NCBI GenBank assembly: GCA_963662465.1
Contig: OY759599.1
Location: forward strand, 5,856,001-5,920,000
Reading direction: 5' to 3'
Length of the DNA: 64,000 nucleotides
From: Desulfatiglandales bacterium
Lineage (GTDB): Bacteria > Desulfobacterota > DSM-4660 > Desulfatiglandales > Desulfatiglandaceae
A program made the position numbers and the translations under genes. The notes under the pieces were generated by a model. It was not told the origin of the DNA. It did no database searches and was given only the letters and a program-made list of their open reading frames with translations. Shown one piece after another: positions 30,432 to 38,655 of the stretch. Numbering within the stretch: the stretch's first letter is position 1; every line of letters begins with the position of its first letter.

Positions 30432-30486
30432 ATATACGGAAACGGATATTTGATGACAAAAAAAACCGTATAATCACTGGTTGTGC
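30432..30486 (+). other. Candidate attI site
   Basis: R-box GTTGTGC (30480-30486) upstream of the divergent intI remnant; exact reverse complement of the first attC R'' GCACAAC. Confidence 0.55.
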
Positions 30487-30579
30487 TTGCGACACGATGT
30501 CGCATAGTTTGAGTGTATTCATGTAGTTACATGTAGTACCCGGTATGTTCCTACCGGACCCTACGCAGGCATGCTGCCG

Positions 30580-31276
30580 TTGCGCTGATGACGGGGTGTG
30601 AAGCCCTGCGGACAACGTACCGAATCGGGTTCAAATGGCGACAGGAGAACCCCTCCGGGAATCCTCCCCGGTTAAGGGCTAGGGTCGGATGATATGGTGA
30701 AGGTATCTGAATGTCTTTAAGCGTCGATTACAAGCGAAGGACCTACGAGGATTAATAGATCTTATGCCGCTGCCCAGTGTCAGCGGATGTGGTCAGGTTG
30801 CAGGTCTGTCAACTGCCTGCACGGAACTGTTATACCACCGGCGTAGAGGGCGCACCTAAGTCATCCATTGGATCAACTATGTGGAACGTGGAAACCCGGT
30901 CCCGTCGCCCCTTTTGGGGGCAGGCTAACCGCAAGGCATGCTGTTGGCGGGCCGGAGTAGGAGGCTGAAAAAAGCGAATGCCGGGCCGTAATGGTCCGGA
31001 TACCGGGTGAAACATTCCCGGCTCCGTAAGGAGGCAGACGTTCAGCGCGGTGCCCGATCACGTGAACACCGGAGGAATCAGATGAAAGCGGGGAAAGCAG
31101 CCAGTGAAACGGGCGAATGACGGCCCTTGAGGCTGGTGCGCCCCGTGCGCCTTTGGCTATTCTGACAGCTGGCCTGTAACGTGAAGTGGATGCAAATCTG
31201 CGGGAATCCCCACCAGGGAAACCTTTTCGGGGGCTTGAGCCACGTGAGGTGAAAGTCTCATGCGTGGTTCTGAGGG
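30580..31276 (+). ncRNA. ORF-less group II intron, domains I-V (5' boundary approximate)
   Basis: TTGCG candidate start; canonical 34-nt domain V GAGCCACGTGAGGTGAAAGTCTCATGCGTGGTTC at 31237-31270 (AGC triad, GAAA loop, 2-nt bulge); no RT ORF. Confidence 0.85.
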
Positions 31277-31306
31277 TAATAGCGGCATAATACACACCTC
31301 CGTACG

Positions 31307-33394
31307 TTATTGAAAATTAAAGACTTGTTGTTTTGAGTTTCTTGAAAGCGGGCTCTTTGGAAGCCCGGAATGAGCTGCCTTTTTTATCACTTCAGATTCA
31401 AGGTCCTTTTTTGAAATGATCCATGGAGCACCGGAACATACTCGCTTGGCGGGTAGAATCTCATGTTGTATAAGTCTCCAAACTTTGGTGCTGCCAATAC
31501 CCAGCCTTTCGCTTGCTTCAGCTACCGTATATTCTTCTCGTCGCTGCCTCTCTCCTTCATGATATACAGGGATATTATGCCTATTTCGAAATGAACGCAA
31601 CCTTACCGGATTCCAGGTATATCCCTTTGTAGTCTTTGTACCCACACGGTTGAGAAAGGCCACGATGTGTTTATCAGGCATAATTCTAGCCAAATCGGAT
31701 ATTATCTTTTTTGTATCAACATCGGTTTTCAATGGGTAACTGGAAGACTTATTCTTCAGTACCTCCAATTCCGTATGCTCACCCCCTTCCCAGTGAATGA
31801 TTAATTTGATCTTTTGCTCTTCCAAATAAACAACGATCTCTTTGATAACCGTCCGGATTATACGCTTCTTTAAATCCAAAGAGCAACACGGATCATTCCA
31901 TACACGAGGTAAATCTTGTGACAGATCTCTGATCTCGGTCTCTTCCTCAGGGGAAAGCGAAGGGGTGTTCGACCCCATAGCGGTAATCTCATTCTCCAAT
32001 CTTGCTACCTTAACAAGAGCGTCATTCCAATCCTTCTCCAATGTAGATGCTACCAAACGATTATCAGGGTCCACTGCATTGTATTGACGTTTTGCCCGTA
32101 AAGCTTCATAACGCGCTTGTTCCAACTCCAGTTCCCGTTGCCGTTTCACTGAATCCGATTCATGGTTGATTTTCTTTATCGCCTCTAAAGAAGCTTCTAA
32201 TCCTATCGGTGATAATACTTTCAAAAGAAAATCCGTAACAGCCCGGTCAACACGGAATCCACCAAATGATATACACGCCTTTCCTGTCTCGTTACCTCGT
32301 TTGCGGCTACACTCATAACGTTTATGAGTTCCATTACGGCCTTGGTATCGTACAATTAACTTTCTACCGCAATGACCGCATCTTAACAAACCTCCAAGCA
32401 ATGCCTTTCCTCCGCGAACAGCTCCTCTCACCACCGGCCTTTTCTTATTTGTATTTTGAGTTAGTATCTCCATGTTATACTGGTACTCTTCCCATGTGAT
32501 GTAACCTTCATGGTGATCCAATATTAAAACGTCCCAATCCTTTTGTTCCTTACGAATACCCTTCCTCAGTCGCTTGCGCCCATTTTCAAAAGTTACCTCT
32601 GTTTTAGTCCGGCCATAGACGTAGGCGCCGGCGTAAATTGGGTTGTTCACTATATGCGACAAGGTATGAGCAGACGGTAGTTTCCACTCTATCCTACGTT
32701 CCCCTTTACCGCTGGAAACAACAGCAATCTCAATCTGTTCATCTAAAAACCAATGATACACCCGACGAAGAGTACCATATTCCTTGAATTTCGTGAATAC
32801 CAAATCAATGACTTCTTGAATTCGTTTGTCAGGATTCTTTTTCAGCTTATTATCCCTAGTCTTTATATAGGCTGCCGGTACAGTAAGATATAATTCTCCC
32901 CGCTTCGCTTTTTGTTGTATTGCCGCCTGAGAACGCTCCTTTAATAGGCTCAATTCCATTGCACTCATTTCTCCCTTTAAGCCCAGGAGCAAACGATCAT
33001 TTGACACGTTTAGGTCATAAACAGCTCCTTGATCTACAAGAACCGTTTTTTTAAGTGCACAGATCTCAAGCAACGTATGCCACTCTCGACCGTTGCGGGC
33101 CAACCTCGATGATTCAATCGAGAAAATACCCCCTATTCTTCCTTCACACACAGATGAAAGAAGATTCTGGAATCCTTTTCTGTCAACGCATCCCGATGCA
33201 GTTATTCCCAAATCACTATCTATCATCCATATGTTTTTCTCGTTCCATCCTAATTCTTTTGCCCTTTCTACCAAGCCATATTGTAAAAGTTGGCTTTCAC
33301 GATGCTGTAGAACTTGGCCCGGTGTTGACTGACGGATATATATACATGCTTCCCGACTAATATGTTCAGCATTGATTTTATTGCTCATGCTCAT
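31307..33394 (-). CDS. Large serine recombinase with C-terminal HTH extension
   Basis: YIRQS catalytic motif, SRLARN, NPIYAGAYVYGR recombinase domain, LLRCGHCG zinc ribbon, coiled coil, terminal YTVAEASERLGI HTH. Confidence 0.95.
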   Translation of the reverse strand: MSMSNKINAEHISREACIYIRQSTPGQVLQHRESQLLQYGLVERAKELGWNEKNIWMIDSDLGITASGCVDRKGFQNLLSSVCEGRIGGIFSIESSRLARNGREWHTLLEICALKKTVLVDQGAVYDLNVSNDRLLLGLKGEMSAMELSLLKERSQAAIQQKAKRGELYLTVPAAYIKTRDNKLKKNPDKRIQEVIDLVFTKFKEYGTLRRVYHWFLDEQIEIAVVSSGKGERRIEWKLPSAHTLSHIVNNPIYAGAYVYGRTKTEVTFENGRKRLRKGIRKEQKDWDVLILDHHEGYITWEEYQYNMEILTQNTNKKRPVVRGAVRGGKALLGGLLRCGHCGRKLIVRYQGRNGTHKRYECSRKRGNETGKACISFGGFRVDRAVTDFLLKVLSPIGLEASLEAIKKINHESDSVKRQRELELEQARYEALRAKRQYNAVDPDNRLVASTLEKDWNDALVKVARLENEITAMGSNTPSLSPEEETEIRDLSQDLPRVWNDPCCSLDLKKRIIRTVIKEIVVYLEEQKIKLIIHWEGGEHTELEVLKNKSSSYPLKTDVDTKKIISDLARIMPDKHIVAFLNRVGTKTTKGYTWNPVRLRSFRNRHNIPVYHEGERQRREEYTVAEASERLGIGSTKVWRLIQHEILPAKRVCSGAPWIISKKDLESEVIKKAAHSGLPKSPLSRNSKQQVFNFQ

Positions 33395-33411
33395 TTCCAC
33401 CTTTCTTTTCT

Positions 33412-33968
33412 CGAAATGTCAACCGAAAATTGACCTCTTGCGACAACCGAATTTTGCCCCCACATGAGTAATTGTAACCTGCGACGCGGTCATAGAAGGC
33501 TCCGGTGGCTCCTGCCGAAATATCCATTAAAAGAGCGACCATAACCGCACCTTAGTCAGCTTCCGACCAGATAATCATCTGGTAAGTCGAGAAAACCCTT
33601 TTTCGTCGCTAATTCGAGTTCAATCAAATACCCTATCTCGCCTTTCATTTTGATCTGTGAAACCATCCACTTCGGTAACCGAATCGTGACGGGGATACGC
33701 CTCAGATGTTCAGGACTCCTTTTTCGACCAGCGCCTTTTCGACTCCCACCTCTCATTTTCATCGCTCCTTTTCACCTTCAAATTCGTCCAATATTTTTGA
33801 ATACCGCGTACGTTTTTCAATTAAACACCTATTTCTATCGGAAAATAAGCTATTTATGATTTATAGTTACGATTTTTCTGAGTCGGATTAAGCTGCTTGC
33901 TTCAACAACTCCAGTCTCTTGACTGCTTCCAATATCAGACCGCGATTTTACGTTAGTGAAACTACTTC
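33412..33968. mobile_element. Probable 557-bp secondary insertion (IS21-like remnant)
   Basis: 8-bp direct repeat TCTTTTCT at 33404-33411 and 33969-33976; left end has tandem CAACCGAAAATTGACC/CAACCGAATTTTGCCC motifs. Confidence 0.5.
33556..33762 (-). CDS. Small basic putative DNA-binding protein (RHH/BrnA-like)
   Basis: RGGSRKGAGRK...VTIRLPKWM; close paralog at 36261-36458. Confidence 0.7.
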   Translation of the reverse strand: MKMRGGSRKGAGRKRSPEHLRRIPVTIRLPKWMVSQIKMKGEIGYLIELELATKKGFLDLPDDYLVGS

Positions 33969-34123
33969 TCTTTTCTATTTCTGTTACCCTCAGAATTTTG
34001 CCAGAAACCTGACAGAAGCTCTGCAAGGAAATCAATCAATCTATTTCGTGTTTCTATTGGAATTTCGATCGGTGATGGTAAATAATCCCAAAGCCGAAGT
34101 TGATGATATTTTTGTTTCGTCAT
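33962..34123 (-). CDS. Small accessory ORF of the recombinase element
   Basis: GGAGG RBS before MTKQKYHQLRLW; lies upstream of the recombinase. Confidence 0.6.
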   Translation of the reverse strand: MTKQKYHQLRLWDYLPSPIEIPIETRNRLIDFLAELLSGFWQNSEGNRNRKEK

Positions 34124-34442
34124 CTTTCCTCCTTGTTTTCGAATTGACTTCATCAGGAGGAAACGGTATTTTTCTATTCACTATTAAGCAATATAAATTC
34201 TTAAGCGCCCTGATTTCGATAGCGGGTTTTGAGCCGAGGGATATCTTTTCATACTTTGGATTGGTCATCCACGCAGGTATCAATTCATGGCGACCATCAG
34301 GTTTCTTTGTTACAAAACAAGTTTCTCCACGATGGTTTCTGGTACCTACCACATAAATTTCTTCACCGGTTCTTGGGTGAAATGGGTAATATACCCAAGT
34401 TATAAACTGGTTTTGATGGGCATTATATAGTGGTTCTGAGGG
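34041..34442 (-). CDS. Y4bD/DUF5372-like accessory gene lacking its start in the integrated state
   Basis: Frame open from the att core: PSEPLYNAHQNQFITWVYYPFHPRTG...LIPAWMT; start codon and RBS lie at 31286-31301. Confidence 0.7.
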   Translation of the reverse strand, partial: PSEPLYNAHQNQFITWVYYPFHPRTGEEIYVVGTRNHRGETCFVTKKPDGRHELIPAWMTNPKYEKISLGSKPAIEIRALKNLYCLIVNRKIPFPPDEVNSKTRRKDDETKISSTSALGLFTITDRNSNRNTK

Positions 34443-34477
34443 GGCTCGGGGATGGCAACATCCCCCGGCTACCCGGC
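34443..34477 (+). ncRNA. Group II intron domain VI and 3' end
   Basis: Hairpin GGGGATG-GCAA-CATCCCC, bulged A in CTACCCGGC. Confidence 0.85.
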
Positions 34478-34782: not shown

Positions 34783-35999
34783 AGGGAATTCCCAAGAAAT
34801 AAACTACCCAACTCCAGATTCAATAAGTACATCCCATTTGGGCAGTGTGTCGGAACGTTTAATTCTGTTTTCGTAAGGTTTCATTTCTTTTTTTGTAAGC
34901 CGGATTCCCTTCTTATATGCCTTTTCCACCAACGTGACAATGGGCTTTATCCCTTTCCATGTCATCGTAGATGCCCAATTGACTGCTTTTGATATTGAAT
35001 CCAATATTTCTCCGTTCCAATGTCCCTCCAATATTCCCCAACATCTTTCAACCGGATTGTACTTACTATGATAGGGAGGATAATAAACCAGGCGGATTCG
35101 CAAACCTGTTTTGTCACTGAATTCGGTCATTCTGCGAATGAATTGAGTCCGACCGCTTGCTGAATTCGGACCATTGTCAAGATTGATAACCAACTCGTTT
35201 ATATGAAGATAGGTAATTCTGTTTTTTTCCCACCACATCTCTAAACAGTCAACGATGAAATCACTTGTTTCAAAAGATGTGCCGAAAAAAATAGAAAGCA
35301 TTCCGCTCAAAACGTCAAGAATACCGTACGGAACCAATTTCATTTCGGGATTCATATCATGGTCTTCAGCTTTCTTCGCTTCCCGATCCCGTGACTTTCC
35401 GTTTCTTGAGAACTCGCCTATATTCACTTTTGCCTTGGCATCAATAGAAATCCGATGAGAGTTGGGATTCTCATCAGAGTCACGGTTTGCCTTCCATACA
35501 TTTTCAAATATTTCATCGACCTGTTTTATCTTTTTCGCAGGTTTGGATTTCAGGACTCGTTTCAGGTTGTATCCCATGCGGTTCAACATGTTGATCAGAG
35601 TGTTGTTAGAGGGAAGATCCTCACCGTCGTATCCTTTCTCATCAATCAGTGCCTTTTTGAGAGCTTTTCCTGTAATTCTTGTATATGTGATAGAGCTTTT
35701 CATGGCAGGGTCCGCCTGAGTTTGAGGTTCTGCAAGGGATATTATGTCTGCTTTAATACCGGGAATCGTGTCTTCTGTTTTCTTTTTTCCCCGTCCCTCA
35801 AAATTATCCATGCATCTGATCCCGCTTTCGGCTTCTTTAAGGCCTTTTGTTACACACTCTCTCCCCCATCCCATCTCCCGTTCAGCTTTGTATGCACTCC
35901 CGTTGAAATATTTCCTGGTAATGTCGGCCTGATATGCTCTTCTTTTGTAACCAGTCAGTCGTCTGCATGCATCTTTTATCAGATTTTTTGTTTCTCCGT
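34783..35999 (-). mobile_element. ISAzo13-family element, 5'-truncated (transposase 34804 to about 35999)
   Basis: ISIDAKAKV, INLDNGP, YYPPYHSKYNPVERCW; AGGGAATTCCCAAGAAATAA end; 5' end replaced by the IS21-like IR. Confidence 0.85.
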
Positions 36000-36260
36000 C
36001 TTGGGCGCTAACCAAAATGGAACCAGTTTTGCTACTCCAAACGGAACCAGATATTGCGCACTGGTCTTTTCCTTTTAGAAGGGTTTTCTTGTAAATTTGT
36101 TAGAGGTTGCATGAAAGAGTATATCAGATGGTATTTTAAAAATGCTGGTGAGACACGTAGCGTTCTGGTTGAAGAATCAGTGATGAGGATACCATCAATA
36201 TGGTGATGGCAGAGAAGAGGGGATTAGATTTTTCGGTTAAGGGCAATGCTTATTGAGGAA

Positions 36261-36458
36261 CTATTTGTCTATGTCATAGTCGTCCGGTAAATTCAGGAGG
36301 CCTCCCTTCGCCAATTGATCCTCAATCAAATATCCAATTTCCCCGTTTTTTTTCAGCTGTAGAATCATCCATTTGGGGAGACGAATGGTGAGCAGTTCAC
36401 GTCTCAAATGTTCCGGTTTCTTTCTTCGGCCGGCGCCTACCCGTTTTCCACCTCTCAT
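36261..36458 (-). CDS. Small basic putative DNA-binding protein (RHH/BrnA-like)
   Basis: MRGGKRVGAGRRKKPEHLRRELLTIRLPKWM; paralog of 33556-33762. Confidence 0.7.
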   Translation of the reverse strand: MRGGKRVGAGRRKKPEHLRRELLTIRLPKWMILQLKKNGEIGYLIEDQLAKGGLLNLPDDYDIDK

Positions 36459-36556
36459 TTCAAGCTCCAAGACAAGGTAATTTCTGATATTCGTGTAACG
36501 AGATTCAAACAGACCGGTGATATTCAGACCTCAAAACCGGCCCTTTGGCGAACATC

Positions 36557-37276
36557 TCATTTTCTGAGGGAAGGACCATCAATATGAATGTTGATGCAGC
36601 GATGGTTGAGACGATCCAGCAAGGCATCGACCATGTCCTTTGGTTCAAGCAGCGAATACCATTGTTCAGGTTGAAGATTGGTCGTAATAATTGTGGACCG
36701 ACCGGCTTCATAGCGATCTTTCATGAGTTTAAAAAAGGCGTTCATCTGCTCTTTTTTGAGGGTCAGGTATCCCAGTTCATCGAGCAGAAGCAGGTCATAT
36801 CTGCAAAGGGCATTGAGGAGTTTCGGGGTGGACCGATCTGCCAAAGACGCATAGAGCTGATCCAGCAAATCCTGAACATTATAAAAACGCCCCCGGTACC
36901 CGGCAATAATGGCTTGACGAAGGATCCCCACGGCCAATCCCGTTTTGCCGACGCCGGTTTTTCCATGGAACACGATGTTTTCTCTTCGGCTGATAAAGTC
37001 AAGGCCGGACAACGTCATGATCCGGCTCTTCTGTATTCCCGGCTGAAGATCAAACGGAAAGGAGTTGAGGGTCCATTCCCATGGAAGCTTTGCAATCTGG
37101 ACCCGATAGATCATGCTGCGCTCCTGCCGGAAACGTAATTCCTCAGCCAGGAGATTGTAGATGACCTCGTGAATGGAAAAACCGTTCTTTTCAGCCGAAG
37201 CCAACTGTTCTTCGAGAGCCTTCAGCATGCCTTTAAACTTCAAATCAATGAGTAACTGTTCAATTTTCTTTTTCAT
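36557..37276 (-). CDS. istB: IS21 helper ATPase
   Basis: GKTGVGKT, LLLDELGY, TTN, ALLDRL. Confidence 0.93.
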   Translation of the reverse strand: MKKKIEQLLIDLKFKGMLKALEEQLASAEKNGFSIHEVIYNLLAEELRFRQERSMIYRVQIAKLPWEWTLNSFPFDLQPGIQKSRIMTLSGLDFISRRENIVFHGKTGVGKTGLAVGILRQAIIAGYRGRFYNVQDLLDQLYASLADRSTPKLLNALCRYDLLLLDELGYLTLKKEQMNAFFKLMKDRYEAGRSTIITTNLQPEQWYSLLEPKDMVDALLDRLNHRCINIHIDGPSLRK

Positions 37277-38655
37277 AGATCAAAAAAGTCTCCCGCGATA
37301 TAATCGAGAATAATGTTTTCCAGACGCGACAAATCAAAAAGTCCATATTTAAGCGCCTGTGTTATGGCTTTCAAAAAAGGTTCCCCGGGATAAGTGCGTT
37401 TCAGATGAAGCAACCGACGTAACTTGACCACACCGCGACCGTGACTTCTTTTCTTCAGTTCAGCCACATACTCATCCAGGATGGCATCCTCTCCCGTCAA
37501 CAGCTGTTCTTCTTTTGAAGGGATTCGGGGATCTTTTTTTCTTCGAATGGGAACATGGTGACCGGGCAGGGTTGTTCGGGTGTTGCGTTTATCCAGTATG
37601 CGGTCATGTTCCGCCACTTTTGTGTTTTTGTCGTAAACGATGACCTTGAGCCAATGTTTCTGTACTTCCAGGGAGTTCCCAATCAGCGCTTCAGGGACTG
37701 AATAGCGGTTGGTGTCCAAGTGCACATATCCCTGAACATCGGCTACCCTGTGTTCTGCCACATAGACTGGCGGCTGGTATGCCGGTAAATCAATGAGATA
37801 TGGCTTTTCAATGACATAGGCCTCATCCGGCGTCATCCCTAAAGCCCGTTTAAACTTTTTATCGCTTGTATTCCGGCACCAGTCGATTGCCTGCCGGTTC
37901 AAATCCTGCCAGCTAACAAATGTTCTACCGGGAAGAAAATTGTTTTCCACAAAATGAAAAGGCCTTTCCACACGAGCACTTCGATTGGCGTCTCCTACAG
38001 CATGGGCCTCAAACCGGGTTCCATACATATCGCCGAAGTATTTCATTTCAGGCGCAATCAATGCATCAGGCCCGGTGCCGCCGGCCACAATAACATTGGT
38101 GTTGTCAACCATGCACCGGGAACACACCCCGTCCATAAACTCGAATGCTTTTTTTAGGAAAACCTTGCACTCAAACCGGGTAAAACAGGGGTAATACTGA
38201 ATAAAAATCCTTCGGCAAAAGGCCAGGGTCAGGGACGCGCACTGGGTCGACATTTTTTTCCCATTAATGACAACCAGATGGGGTGACGTATCATGCTGCA
38301 TCTCCTGACCGGGTTTAAAATGGTATTGGCCCGCCCGTCTTTTTTTACGTTCCCGGATCTCGTACTTTCTCATAATCCAGGTCAGACTCTGATAAGGGAT
38401 TTTGATCTGTTGGCGGCTTTCCAGTTCCTCGGCTACTCGCACGGCATTTCCTTTACATTCCTTGAAAAGCTCGCGGATCAACGGGACATGTTCTTCATAC
38501 CGGGAGTTCCTTTGGGGTACCGCCTCTTCGTCATGATCATCTAAAACCTTCGTGACGGTATTGCGACCGGCCTTCAGGGTTTTGGCGATGTCGCGCAAAC
38601 TCATGCCGGTTTTTTTCAATTCCACAATGGCATCTTTTTTGGATTGTCGGATCAT
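37273..38655 (-). CDS. istA: IS21 transposase
   Basis: N-terminal HTH, PGQEMQHD, VDN, VERPF DDE motifs, NRYSVP. Confidence 0.92.
   Translation of the reverse strand: MIRQSKKDAIVELKKTGMSLRDIAKTLKAGRNTVTKVLDDHDEEAVPQRNSRYEEHVPLIRELFKECKGNAVRVAEELESRQQIKIPYQSLTWIMRKYEIRERKKRRAGQYHFKPGQEMQHDTSPHLVVINGKKMSTQCASLTLAFCRRIFIQYYPCFTRFECKVFLKKAFEFMDGVCSRCMVDNTNVIVAGGTGPDALIAPEMKYFGDMYGTRFEAHAVGDANRSARVERPFHFVENNFLPGRTFVSWQDLNRQAIDWCRNTSDKKFKRALGMTPDEAYVIEKPYLIDLPAYQPPVYVAEHRVADVQGYVHLDTNRYSVPEALIGNSLEVQKHWLKVIVYDKNTKVAEHDRILDKRNTRTTLPGHHVPIRRKKDPRIPSKEEQLLTGEDAILDEYVAELKKRSHGRGVVKLRRLLHLKRTYPGEPFLKAITQALKYGLFDLSRLENIILDYIAGDFFDL

Follow-up and report, generated by a model that had tools for sequence, protein, structure and literature searches.

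In the transposons Tn4451 and Tn4453 of Clostridium, the excised circle reportedly gives rise to a promoter of the large serine recombinase gene tnpX. Promoters that arise at the junction of insertion sequence (IS) circles are also known, attachment sites lie within a gene in mycobacteriophage integration-dependent immunity and in the split integrase gene of the SSV1 type, and phage large serine integrases have recombination directionality factors (RDFs), such as phiC31 gp3 and Bxb1 gp47. For ICEclc and ICEKp1, state-dependent integrase promoters have been described, named Pcirc and P3'end, respectively (PMC13023037). Here, we describe an element of 3166 bp in a 64,000-nucleotide stretch of contig OY759599.1 from a Desulfatiglandales bacterium (assembly GCA_963662465.1, positions 5,856,001 to 5,920,000; hereafter the window, with its first letter as position 1). 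We propose that it is probably an autonomous element of three genes in which integration splits the start off the gene for a DUF5372-like protein (hereafter the DUF gene), such that the full protein would be made only from the circular, or attP, form and may act together with the recombinase after excision.

Like Tn4451 and Tn4453, this is a small element moved by a large serine recombinase (LSR) with a circular intermediate, and joining of its ends would create an expression signal that is absent when integrated. The difference is in what is assembled: there it is a promoter for the recombinase gene, whereas here the Shine-Dalgarno (SD) sequence, the ATG and five codons are cut from an accessory gene and the recombinase gene stays whole. 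With mycobacteriophage immunity and SSV1 it shares an attachment site in coding sequence and a protein that would differ between the free and the integrated state, but in those systems either the 3' part of a repressor gene or an integrase gene is cut, whereas here the accessory gene loses its 5' end and start codon and would have no translatable product when integrated. The phiC31 and Bxb1 systems resemble this element in the domains of the recombinase, in a crossover of 2 bp and in having a small accessory protein, which here may bind the recombinase; however, in those prophages the genes for the RDFs, which function in excision, are uninterrupted, whereas the accessory gene here is start-less when integrated, and the recombinase here has an extra C-terminal HTH_17 domain and targets other mobile elements. 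ICEclc and ICEKp1 are alike in that a far-end signal drives a near-end gene only after circularisation, but they are large conjugative elements with tyrosine integrases and transcriptional control of the integrase (PMC13023037), whereas the present element has three genes and its control would be translational and directed at an accessory protein. State-dependent promoters across circle junctions are known, whereas a translation start cut off a gene was not found in print: a literature search with supplements and subscription journals outside its scope returned, among the matches listed and judged by title or abstract, no relevant paper on DUF5372, y4bD, LSRs in group II introns, or a start codon separated at attP.

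The element extends over window positions 31274-34439 on the minus strand, with its bounds taken from the inferred crossover. Read along that strand, the DUF gene is followed by a small open reading frame (ORF), by about 560 bp that hold another frame, ORF68, and by the gene for an LSR of 697 amino acids, as follows:

34430-34442, unstranded: right copy of the core, 13 bp; crossover dinucleotide 34439-34440; supported by the contig joint that skips from 31263 to 34430.
34041-34439, minus strand: body of the DUF5372-like gene, from codon 6 to the stop at 34043-34041, without a start of its own before the VYYPFHPR motif.
33962-34123, minus strand: small conserved ORF, 53 amino acids from the ATG behind AGGAGG (34123) or 63 from an upstream ATG at 34153; overlaps the 3' end of the DUF gene; tblastn match in 35 of 45 loci.
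33401-33961, minus strand: extra segment of about 560 bp, absent from relatives, containing ORF68 (33762-33556).
31307-33400, minus strand: LSR, 697 amino acids; Pfam Resolvase, Recombinase, Zn_ribbon_recom and a C-terminal HTH_17.
31286-31301, minus strand: far-end start signals, namely GGAGG (31301-31297), an 8-nt spacer and ATG (31288-31286); read from the sequence and identical in 7 of 7 genome copies.
31264-31276, unstranded: left copy of the core, 13 bp, common to attP and attB; inferred crossover dinucleotide 31273-31274 (CT on the minus strand), located with the N11-NN-N11 rule that 24 loci gave.

The far-end ATG stands 18 nt behind the LSR stop codon (TAA, 31309-31307) and is followed by codons 2-5 (31285-31274), so that the minus strand reads ATG CCG CTA TTA CCC TCA GAA CCA C. 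At the opposite end, the DUF frame is open from 34526 to its stop and contains the conserved VYYPFHPR motif. In the integrated state this frame has no ATG, GTG or TTG before a GTG at 34352, which lies behind the motif, and the codon preceding YYP is GTA. When the far end and the body are joined in silico across attP, the result is an in-frame protein of 4 + 133 = 137 amino acids; while the element is integrated, the far-end ATG leads only into junk peptides that vary in length (43 amino acids in the window, 8 in the plasmid locus L077). The original prediction, made from the letters of the window alone, had named the far-end GGAGG and ATG, their frame into the left core and its continuation at the right core, and all were recovered on the minus strand. 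It had further held that no start lies between the upstream stop and YYPFHP in the integrated state, which the open frame bears out, and that circularisation fuses the two parts into a 137-amino-acid protein, with which both the in-silico fusion and the N-termini of database proteins (below) agree.

In the 90% cluster database, 13 homologues of the DUF-like protein were found among 17 candidates. Their predicted N-termini are erratic, and several start with domain VI of a group II intron translated backwards (…RVAGGCC…); those copies are therefore also integrated in introns. Locus searches gave 45 loci (3 in genomes and 42 in metagenomes), in 35 of which an LSR gene comes after the DUF gene with both on one strand, the other 10 consisting of a contig end or a fragment only. 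Both junctions are present in 24 loci, namely the window, 18 metagenome loci (13 of the main family and 5 more distant) and 5 loci on rhizobial plasmids, with LSR identity as low as 46%. Apart from exceptions noted for single loci, these share the layout (G/A)AGG-N8-ATG-N11-[crossover NN]-N11-CAT.

An SD-like motif and an ATG stand behind the LSR stop in all 20 of the metagenome loci that have sequence there. In the main family (LSRs 70-85% identical), the string GTAC(G/A)GAGG(T/G)GTGTAT(T/C)ATG, with an 18-nt gap from the stop, is found in 15 of 15 loci with sequence at that place, and the ATG is followed by four codons and then by the reverse complement of a domain V; antisense introns adjoining L037 and L043 were identified by Rfam. 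The distant metagenome loci (LSRs about 46% identical) all carry GGGAG, TGAGG, CGAGG or GAAGG, then 8-9 nt and ATG (5 of 5, with L068 read by eye), the gap from stop to ATG ranging from 17 to 51 nt, and a far-end SD and ATG are present in 4 of the 5 rhizobial plasmid loci. The 8-nt spacer differs between lineages while the SD-like motif is kept (TGTGTATT, TATGCATC, TGGGCAGT, TACGCATT, TGAGCATT). No mirrored SD (CCTY) occurs on the other arm of attP in the main-family and distant locus sequences that were read; hence the SD is not explained by symmetry of the site.

The spacing around the crossover is fixed. In every lineage, 24 nt separate the far-end ATG from codon 10 of the DUF frame, a CAT (in the window, TAT), and the crossover is flanked by ATTATG and CATAAT, which pair as an inverted motif at a distance of 24 nt. 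We compared the 24 nt after ATG at the far junction with the 24 nt before CAT at the near junction, and found the bases at nt 12-13 after ATG to be equal at both junctions in 22 of the 24 loci (L068 by eye). In L070 and L071 the only junction bases shared are TT at nt 12-13, and the reading frame of the target gene that was interrupted gives, independently, the same position for the break. In every case the fusion is in frame if the crossover lies at this point, which in the window is CT (31274-31273 and 34440-34439). This comparison points to conservative recombination at a central 2-bp overlap, as is typical of LSRs. Out-of-frame junctions that the longest shared strings (AGAACC and CAAGGG) would give for L040-42 and L067 were considered and rejected, on the fixed 24-nt spacing from ATG to CAT and on the intron type of L057.

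A further point is the lack of other starts. Of 44 loci, 37 are without any in-frame ATG, GTG or TTG within the element-internal 48 nt ahead of the motif. The original prediction had suggested testing whether homologues lack annotated starts and carry an in-frame ribosome-binding site and ATG at the far end of their elements; an SD-like motif and ATG at that end are what the 20 metagenome loci show, with the shared dinucleotide at the in-frame position in 22 of 24 loci. It had also named the one start that could overturn it, the GTG at 34352; this start is not conserved, the corresponding column being V, I, T or A in relatives, and it would remove the invariant VYYPxHPR motif. The DUF gene itself is maintained, with motifs that are invariant across the 13 DUF-like sequences and frames that are open in all 6 uninterrupted copies of the element. 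As to annotation, no coding sequence is recorded under 12 of the 25 plasmid matches listed, and in 5 plasmid loci that hold the LSR the DUF body is without a listed coding sequence, the gene table of PLSDB being incomplete. One locus, L073, holds a decayed remnant at 1330-1475, made up of reverse-complement domain VI and the first 27 codons of the DUF body, followed by unrelated sequence.

If the frame is rejoined in attP, joined proteins may be found in databases. A profile of the 13 family members matched 1676 representatives (at 50% identity) with E <= 1e-3 and 462 with E <= 1e-10, and among 143 motif-bearing proteins examined, 19 have the motif at residue 22-23, where a fused form should have it. 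One database protein, P0078, begins MPRL, and its sequence from residue 5 onward, PTEPLHNAH…, aligns to PSEPLYNAH… from residue 1 of the window body, the window far end encoding MPLL. A second, P0063, begins MKQAR, which is also what the far end of the plasmid locus L077 encodes, and the two bodies are 67% identical. P0078 and P0063 carry the predicted fused N-termini and can have come only from DNA with joined ends, so that DNA of the attP form exists and its coding sequences are represented in the databases. In viral contigs, a scan with the attP pattern gave 0 matches and no relatives of P0078 were found. A promoter scan of the junction returned a single candidate, TTTTCA-18-TATTAT at 31316-31287 (9 of 12 positions), which overlaps the SD and ATG, and the count of such sites was 6 against 6.2 in shuffles. 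What would be assembled across the circle junction is a translation start.

Based on these findings, we propose the following course of events. The recombinase would insert the element, always antisense, at the junction of domains V and VI of group II introns, with attP lying inside the first ten DUF codons (SD, N8, ATG, 11 nt, 2-bp crossover, 11 nt, and CAT or TAT as codon 10). Integration leaves the SD, the ATG and the first five codons stranded at the far end, with a gap of 18 nt from the recombinase stop, and a start-less body at the other end that would not be translatable as long as the element is integrated. In this state the small ORF and the LSR could be expressed from a signal inside the DUF gene, for which TCGAAA-18-TATATT at 34219-34190 is a candidate, although not a significant one. 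Excision to a circle, or the formation of any attP form, would rejoin the frame and close a ring of DUF gene, small ORF and LSR, from which the 137-amino-acid protein would be made directly downstream of the recombinase gene. What the sequences show is the anatomy, the independent insertions, a layout kept across distant relatives and differing targets, and attP-form coding sequences in databases; that the protein is made only from the circle we infer.

Several observations weigh against this proposal. Among the far ends, L081 is without a clear SD, and two of the 24 loci, L043 and L046, have an unequal junction dinucleotide (CA versus CT, differing in the second base). The same is seen in copy c7 of the window genome (C1:6823249-6826402), whose right junction is normal and lies in a third intron variant, but whose left junction is anomalous, with a flank that is not intron and junction dinucleotides that disagree (CT versus CA), possibly as a result of a later rearrangement or of recombination at a pseudo-site. 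For P0078 and P0063, contiguity of the genes is deduced from the protein sequences. No attP was found within 6 mismatches in the assembled genome, and no circle back-joint was found in the contigs of 4 runs, which contained only skip joints; since contigs drop rare forms, this last result is uninformative. Contigs from RNA libraries (X6 and X13) cover parts of the element and integrated junctions, but DNA carry-over is possible, so they do not count as evidence of expression. The near junction of L046 also carries an apparent duplicated remnant of the core.

Furthermore, the ATG is part of the inverted motif, and the whole stretch is conserved as DNA, so part of the conservation of the ATG could reflect binding by the recombinase and not translation. 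Because the fixed 24-nt spacing sets the frame, conservation of the in-frame ATG is, alone, not independent evidence, and the weight of the argument is carried by the SD with its varying spacer, by the lack of other starts in 37 of 44 loci, and by the joined proteins. It is here that the strongest competing explanation comes in, in which GGAGG and ATG are kept at the far end only as an arm of attP bound by the recombinase, while translation of the DUF protein begins elsewhere, whether or not the element is integrated (at an internal GTG or TTG, at a non-canonical codon, or by read-through out of host sequence), with no switch at all. The inverted pair would fit this, as would DNA that is more conserved there than the neighbouring coding sequence, the in-frame GTG or TTG found 1-13 codons ahead of the motif in 7 of 44 loci, and the starts that gene callers place upstream in the host flanks for several relatives. 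We nevertheless consider it unlikely. An arm bound by the recombinase does not account for an SD-like motif that stays while its spacer varies and that has no mirror image on the other arm; most loci, including the window with its GTA before YYP, have no element-internal start; the GTG at 34352 is not conserved and would delete an invariant motif; the starts in host flanks vary from copy to copy because the flanks vary; and the far-end ATG opens only junk peptides when integrated.

In light of the proposed split, what might the DUF protein do? The original prediction had noted its resemblance to DUF5372, which is real but falls short of the family threshold: the window protein matches PF17342 with E 4.8e-4 and 20.6 bits, below the gathering cut-off of 25. 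Among 5 relatives from the loci, L068 scores 17.3 and L069 19.0, with no match for the other 3, and when 50 of the best 150 profile matches were scanned, 21 matched PF17342 at E <= 1e-3 and 10 passed the cut-off (P0062 with 37.5 bits). On these scores, a divergent branch within the DUF5372 superfamily is the best description of the protein. Its AlphaFold model (mean pLDDT 72.2, and >90 for residues ~10-60) consists of four strands, a short helix, a longer helix and a disordered basic tail. Foldseek gave no match against the PDB at E <= 0.001, and the best VIA-align score (Z 5.3) is to SH3, KOW and Tudor-like barrels, a common arrangement from which no function follows.

A model of the complex with the recombinase, which had been suggested along with the original prediction, gave an ipSAE of 0.56 versus 0.00 for the best of 3 controls, with runs agreeing in at least 59% of contacts and a partner pLDDT of at least 58; at <=0.60, only 18 of 157 solved complexes passed, and both of the 2 mismatches that passed lie there. 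The model thus weakly suggests that the DUF-like protein may bind the LSR. The original prediction had offered, as a possibility, a factor for targeting, integration or directionality. We tentatively propose that it works with the recombinase once excision has taken place, most likely in favour of re-integration, on which a circle that does not replicate depends, although it may instead act on excision in trans or as a regulator.

A variant of this is that the split is real and the protein is an RDF-like excision factor, supplied in trans from rare circles or attP copies and setting off a burst of excision by positive feedback, with no help to integration. The genome holds 7 copies of the element, so the product of one circle could act on the others, and a protein with a weakly predicted ability to bind the recombinase is reminiscent of known RDFs, which are small, unrelated integrase-binding proteins. 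We regard this as improbable, since inhibition of attP x attB, as by known RDFs, would hamper a circle that does not replicate and needs to re-integrate, and since the small ORF between the DUF and LSR genes, which is expressible when integrated, is an equally good RDF candidate. The small ORF has no Pfam or PHROG match.

The LSR has the domains expected of its class. Its catalytic domain matches PF00239 with E 7e-19 over residues 19-169, and R23, Q24 and S25 are invariant in 13 sequences, the nucleophilic serine being present; these are followed by the Recombinase domain (PF07508, E 2.6e-12) and then a zinc ribbon (PF13408, E 2.9e-8).

The flanks of the element, which the original prediction did not recognise as such, belong to a group II intron:

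30483-31273, plus strand: 5' part of the host intron, domains I-V, with an approximate 5' boundary; domain V at 31237-31270; from Rfam, other genome copies aligning from ~30480-30487.
34441-34477, plus strand: domain VI and 3' end of the host intron, with a GCAA tetraloop and a bulged A at 34471; read by eye, the repeat unit common to the copies ending at 34477.

Rfam matches on the plus strand, both above gathering, are RF02012 at 30539-30679 (78.1 bits) and RF00029 at 31235-31305 (45.8 bits). The sequence at 34441-34477 folds by eye into a far better domain VI, with a long stem, than the sequence that Rfam took. The element lies in antisense orientation in an ORF-less group II intron, between its domains V and VI; with the element removed, the intron is ~830 nt long and has no ORF within, so that there is no intron-encoded reverse transcriptase in domain IV. 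The left core of the original prediction consists of the last seven bases of domain V and the linker. A 2.27-kb relative of the host intron (genome C1:448697-450969, minus strand; 87% identical in domain I) carries an unoccupied attB-like site (6 mismatches over 73 nt) and is the probable source of the reverse transcriptase by which the ORF-less copies are mobilised.

The 8.16-Mb genome contains the 7 copies in at least 3 intron variants, and 6 of them are uninterrupted, each with an open LSR frame of 703 codons and an open DUF frame of 128 codons. The match between copies runs to window position 34477, the 3' end of the intron, beyond which the 3' exons differ. The element copies are 98.9-99.8% identical to the window copy, whereas identity drops to 95.4-97.6% for the four host introns of the same type, and the element therefore spread after the introns had diverged. 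Copy c3 lies in a different intron, with a left core of ACGG... that differs by two bases and a right core of GTGG... that is element-type, and such mixed cores are predicted if a target site and an element site recombine conservatively. An empty intron with a single core is present at genome 3333981-3334808, and the contigs of two runs skip exactly 3166 bases, from 31263 to 34430, representing empty introns. The 13-bp core (plus strand GTGGTTCTGAGGG) is exact at both of its positions in the window but is, taken alone, not significant in 8 kb, as a 15-nt exact repeat occurs elsewhere; that it arose by chance was rejected because 7 copies are bounded alike and because of the empty intron with a single core and the contigs that skip exactly one element length. 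Copy c1 has the 3' region of its LSR gene interrupted by an insertion of 2850 bp (genome C1:3315896-3318745) with an 11-bp flanking duplication and a 669-codon open frame on the opposite strand, which is presumably another mobile element.

That the copies instead spread as passengers of the intron, with intron and insert retrohoming as a unit, no circle, and 13-bp repeats that are not recombinase junctions, is hardly credible: 5 of the 7 copies are in the same intron family at the same position and the genome has the relative at 450969-448697 with its presumed reverse transcriptase, but the elements are more alike than their introns, c3 has its mixed cores in another intron, relatives occupy targets other than introns as well as many unrelated introns, and a 3.2-kb insert between domains V and VI is expected to break splicing.

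The junction of domains V and VI of a group II intron is the target in the window genome and in 13 metagenome loci, in many unrelated intron lineages. In L069 (Pfam IstB_IS21) it is the Walker A codons of an IS21 istB gene, in antisense, and four loci that adjoin istA or truncated 'ATP-binding protein' genes (L077, L078, L079 and L082) were assigned to this same target. Tyrosine-recombinase genes are interrupted near their catalytic end in L070-L072. The upstream flank of L067 holds an antisense IS66 transposase gene that lacks the first ~27 positions of its Pfam profile, and we read this gene as the target. Every identified target, in loci other than L068 and L081, is another mobile element, so the family lives on other mobile elements. 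In L081, on a Bradyrhizobium plasmid (7704-9678), a complete group II intron that carries ltrA is found ~130 nt downstream of the LSR and is oriented like the element, unlike the antisense arrangement at domains V and VI in the window family.

More speculatively, and with considerable reservation, DUF5372 proteins could in general be circle-specific partners of a large clade of LSRs, sensing the topological state, binding the recombinase and pushing integration (an 'inverse RDF'), in a clade that is hyperparasitic on the junction of intron domains V and VI, the Walker A region of IstB, tyrosine recombinases at their catalytic end and, probably, genes for IS66 transposases. Cutting the translation start from a gene would be a different, and tighter, way of sensing the free or integrated state than a junction promoter. 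If true, it would explain the erratic or missing annotated starts in a large family (the 1676 representatives above). In addition, it points to a new accessory factor of LSRs, which as genome-engineering enzymes are limited mainly by control of direction. A clade of small elements that choose other mobile elements as targets also bears on how safe, multi-copy and horizontally travelling insertion sites are found.

Turning to the rest of the locus, this genome has added the segment of about 560 bp that holds ORF68, since in relatives the LSR follows the small ORF after a few to ~40 nt. ORF68 encodes a basic protein of 68 amino acids without a Pfam family (window 33556-33762, minus strand), and ~40 places in the genome match ~140 nt of its DNA at ~72% identity. 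A second copy lies 2.7 kb away at window 36261-36470 (minus strand; 69 amino acids, 71% DNA identity), and ORF68 looks like a separate small multi-copy gene or element. Beside the intron is a transposase gene of the ISAzo13 family (PF07592, E 3.6e-82; window 34804-36015, minus strand), and an istB/istA-like pair, read by eye only, follows at window 36557-38655 (minus strand), making the region a pile-up of mobile elements.

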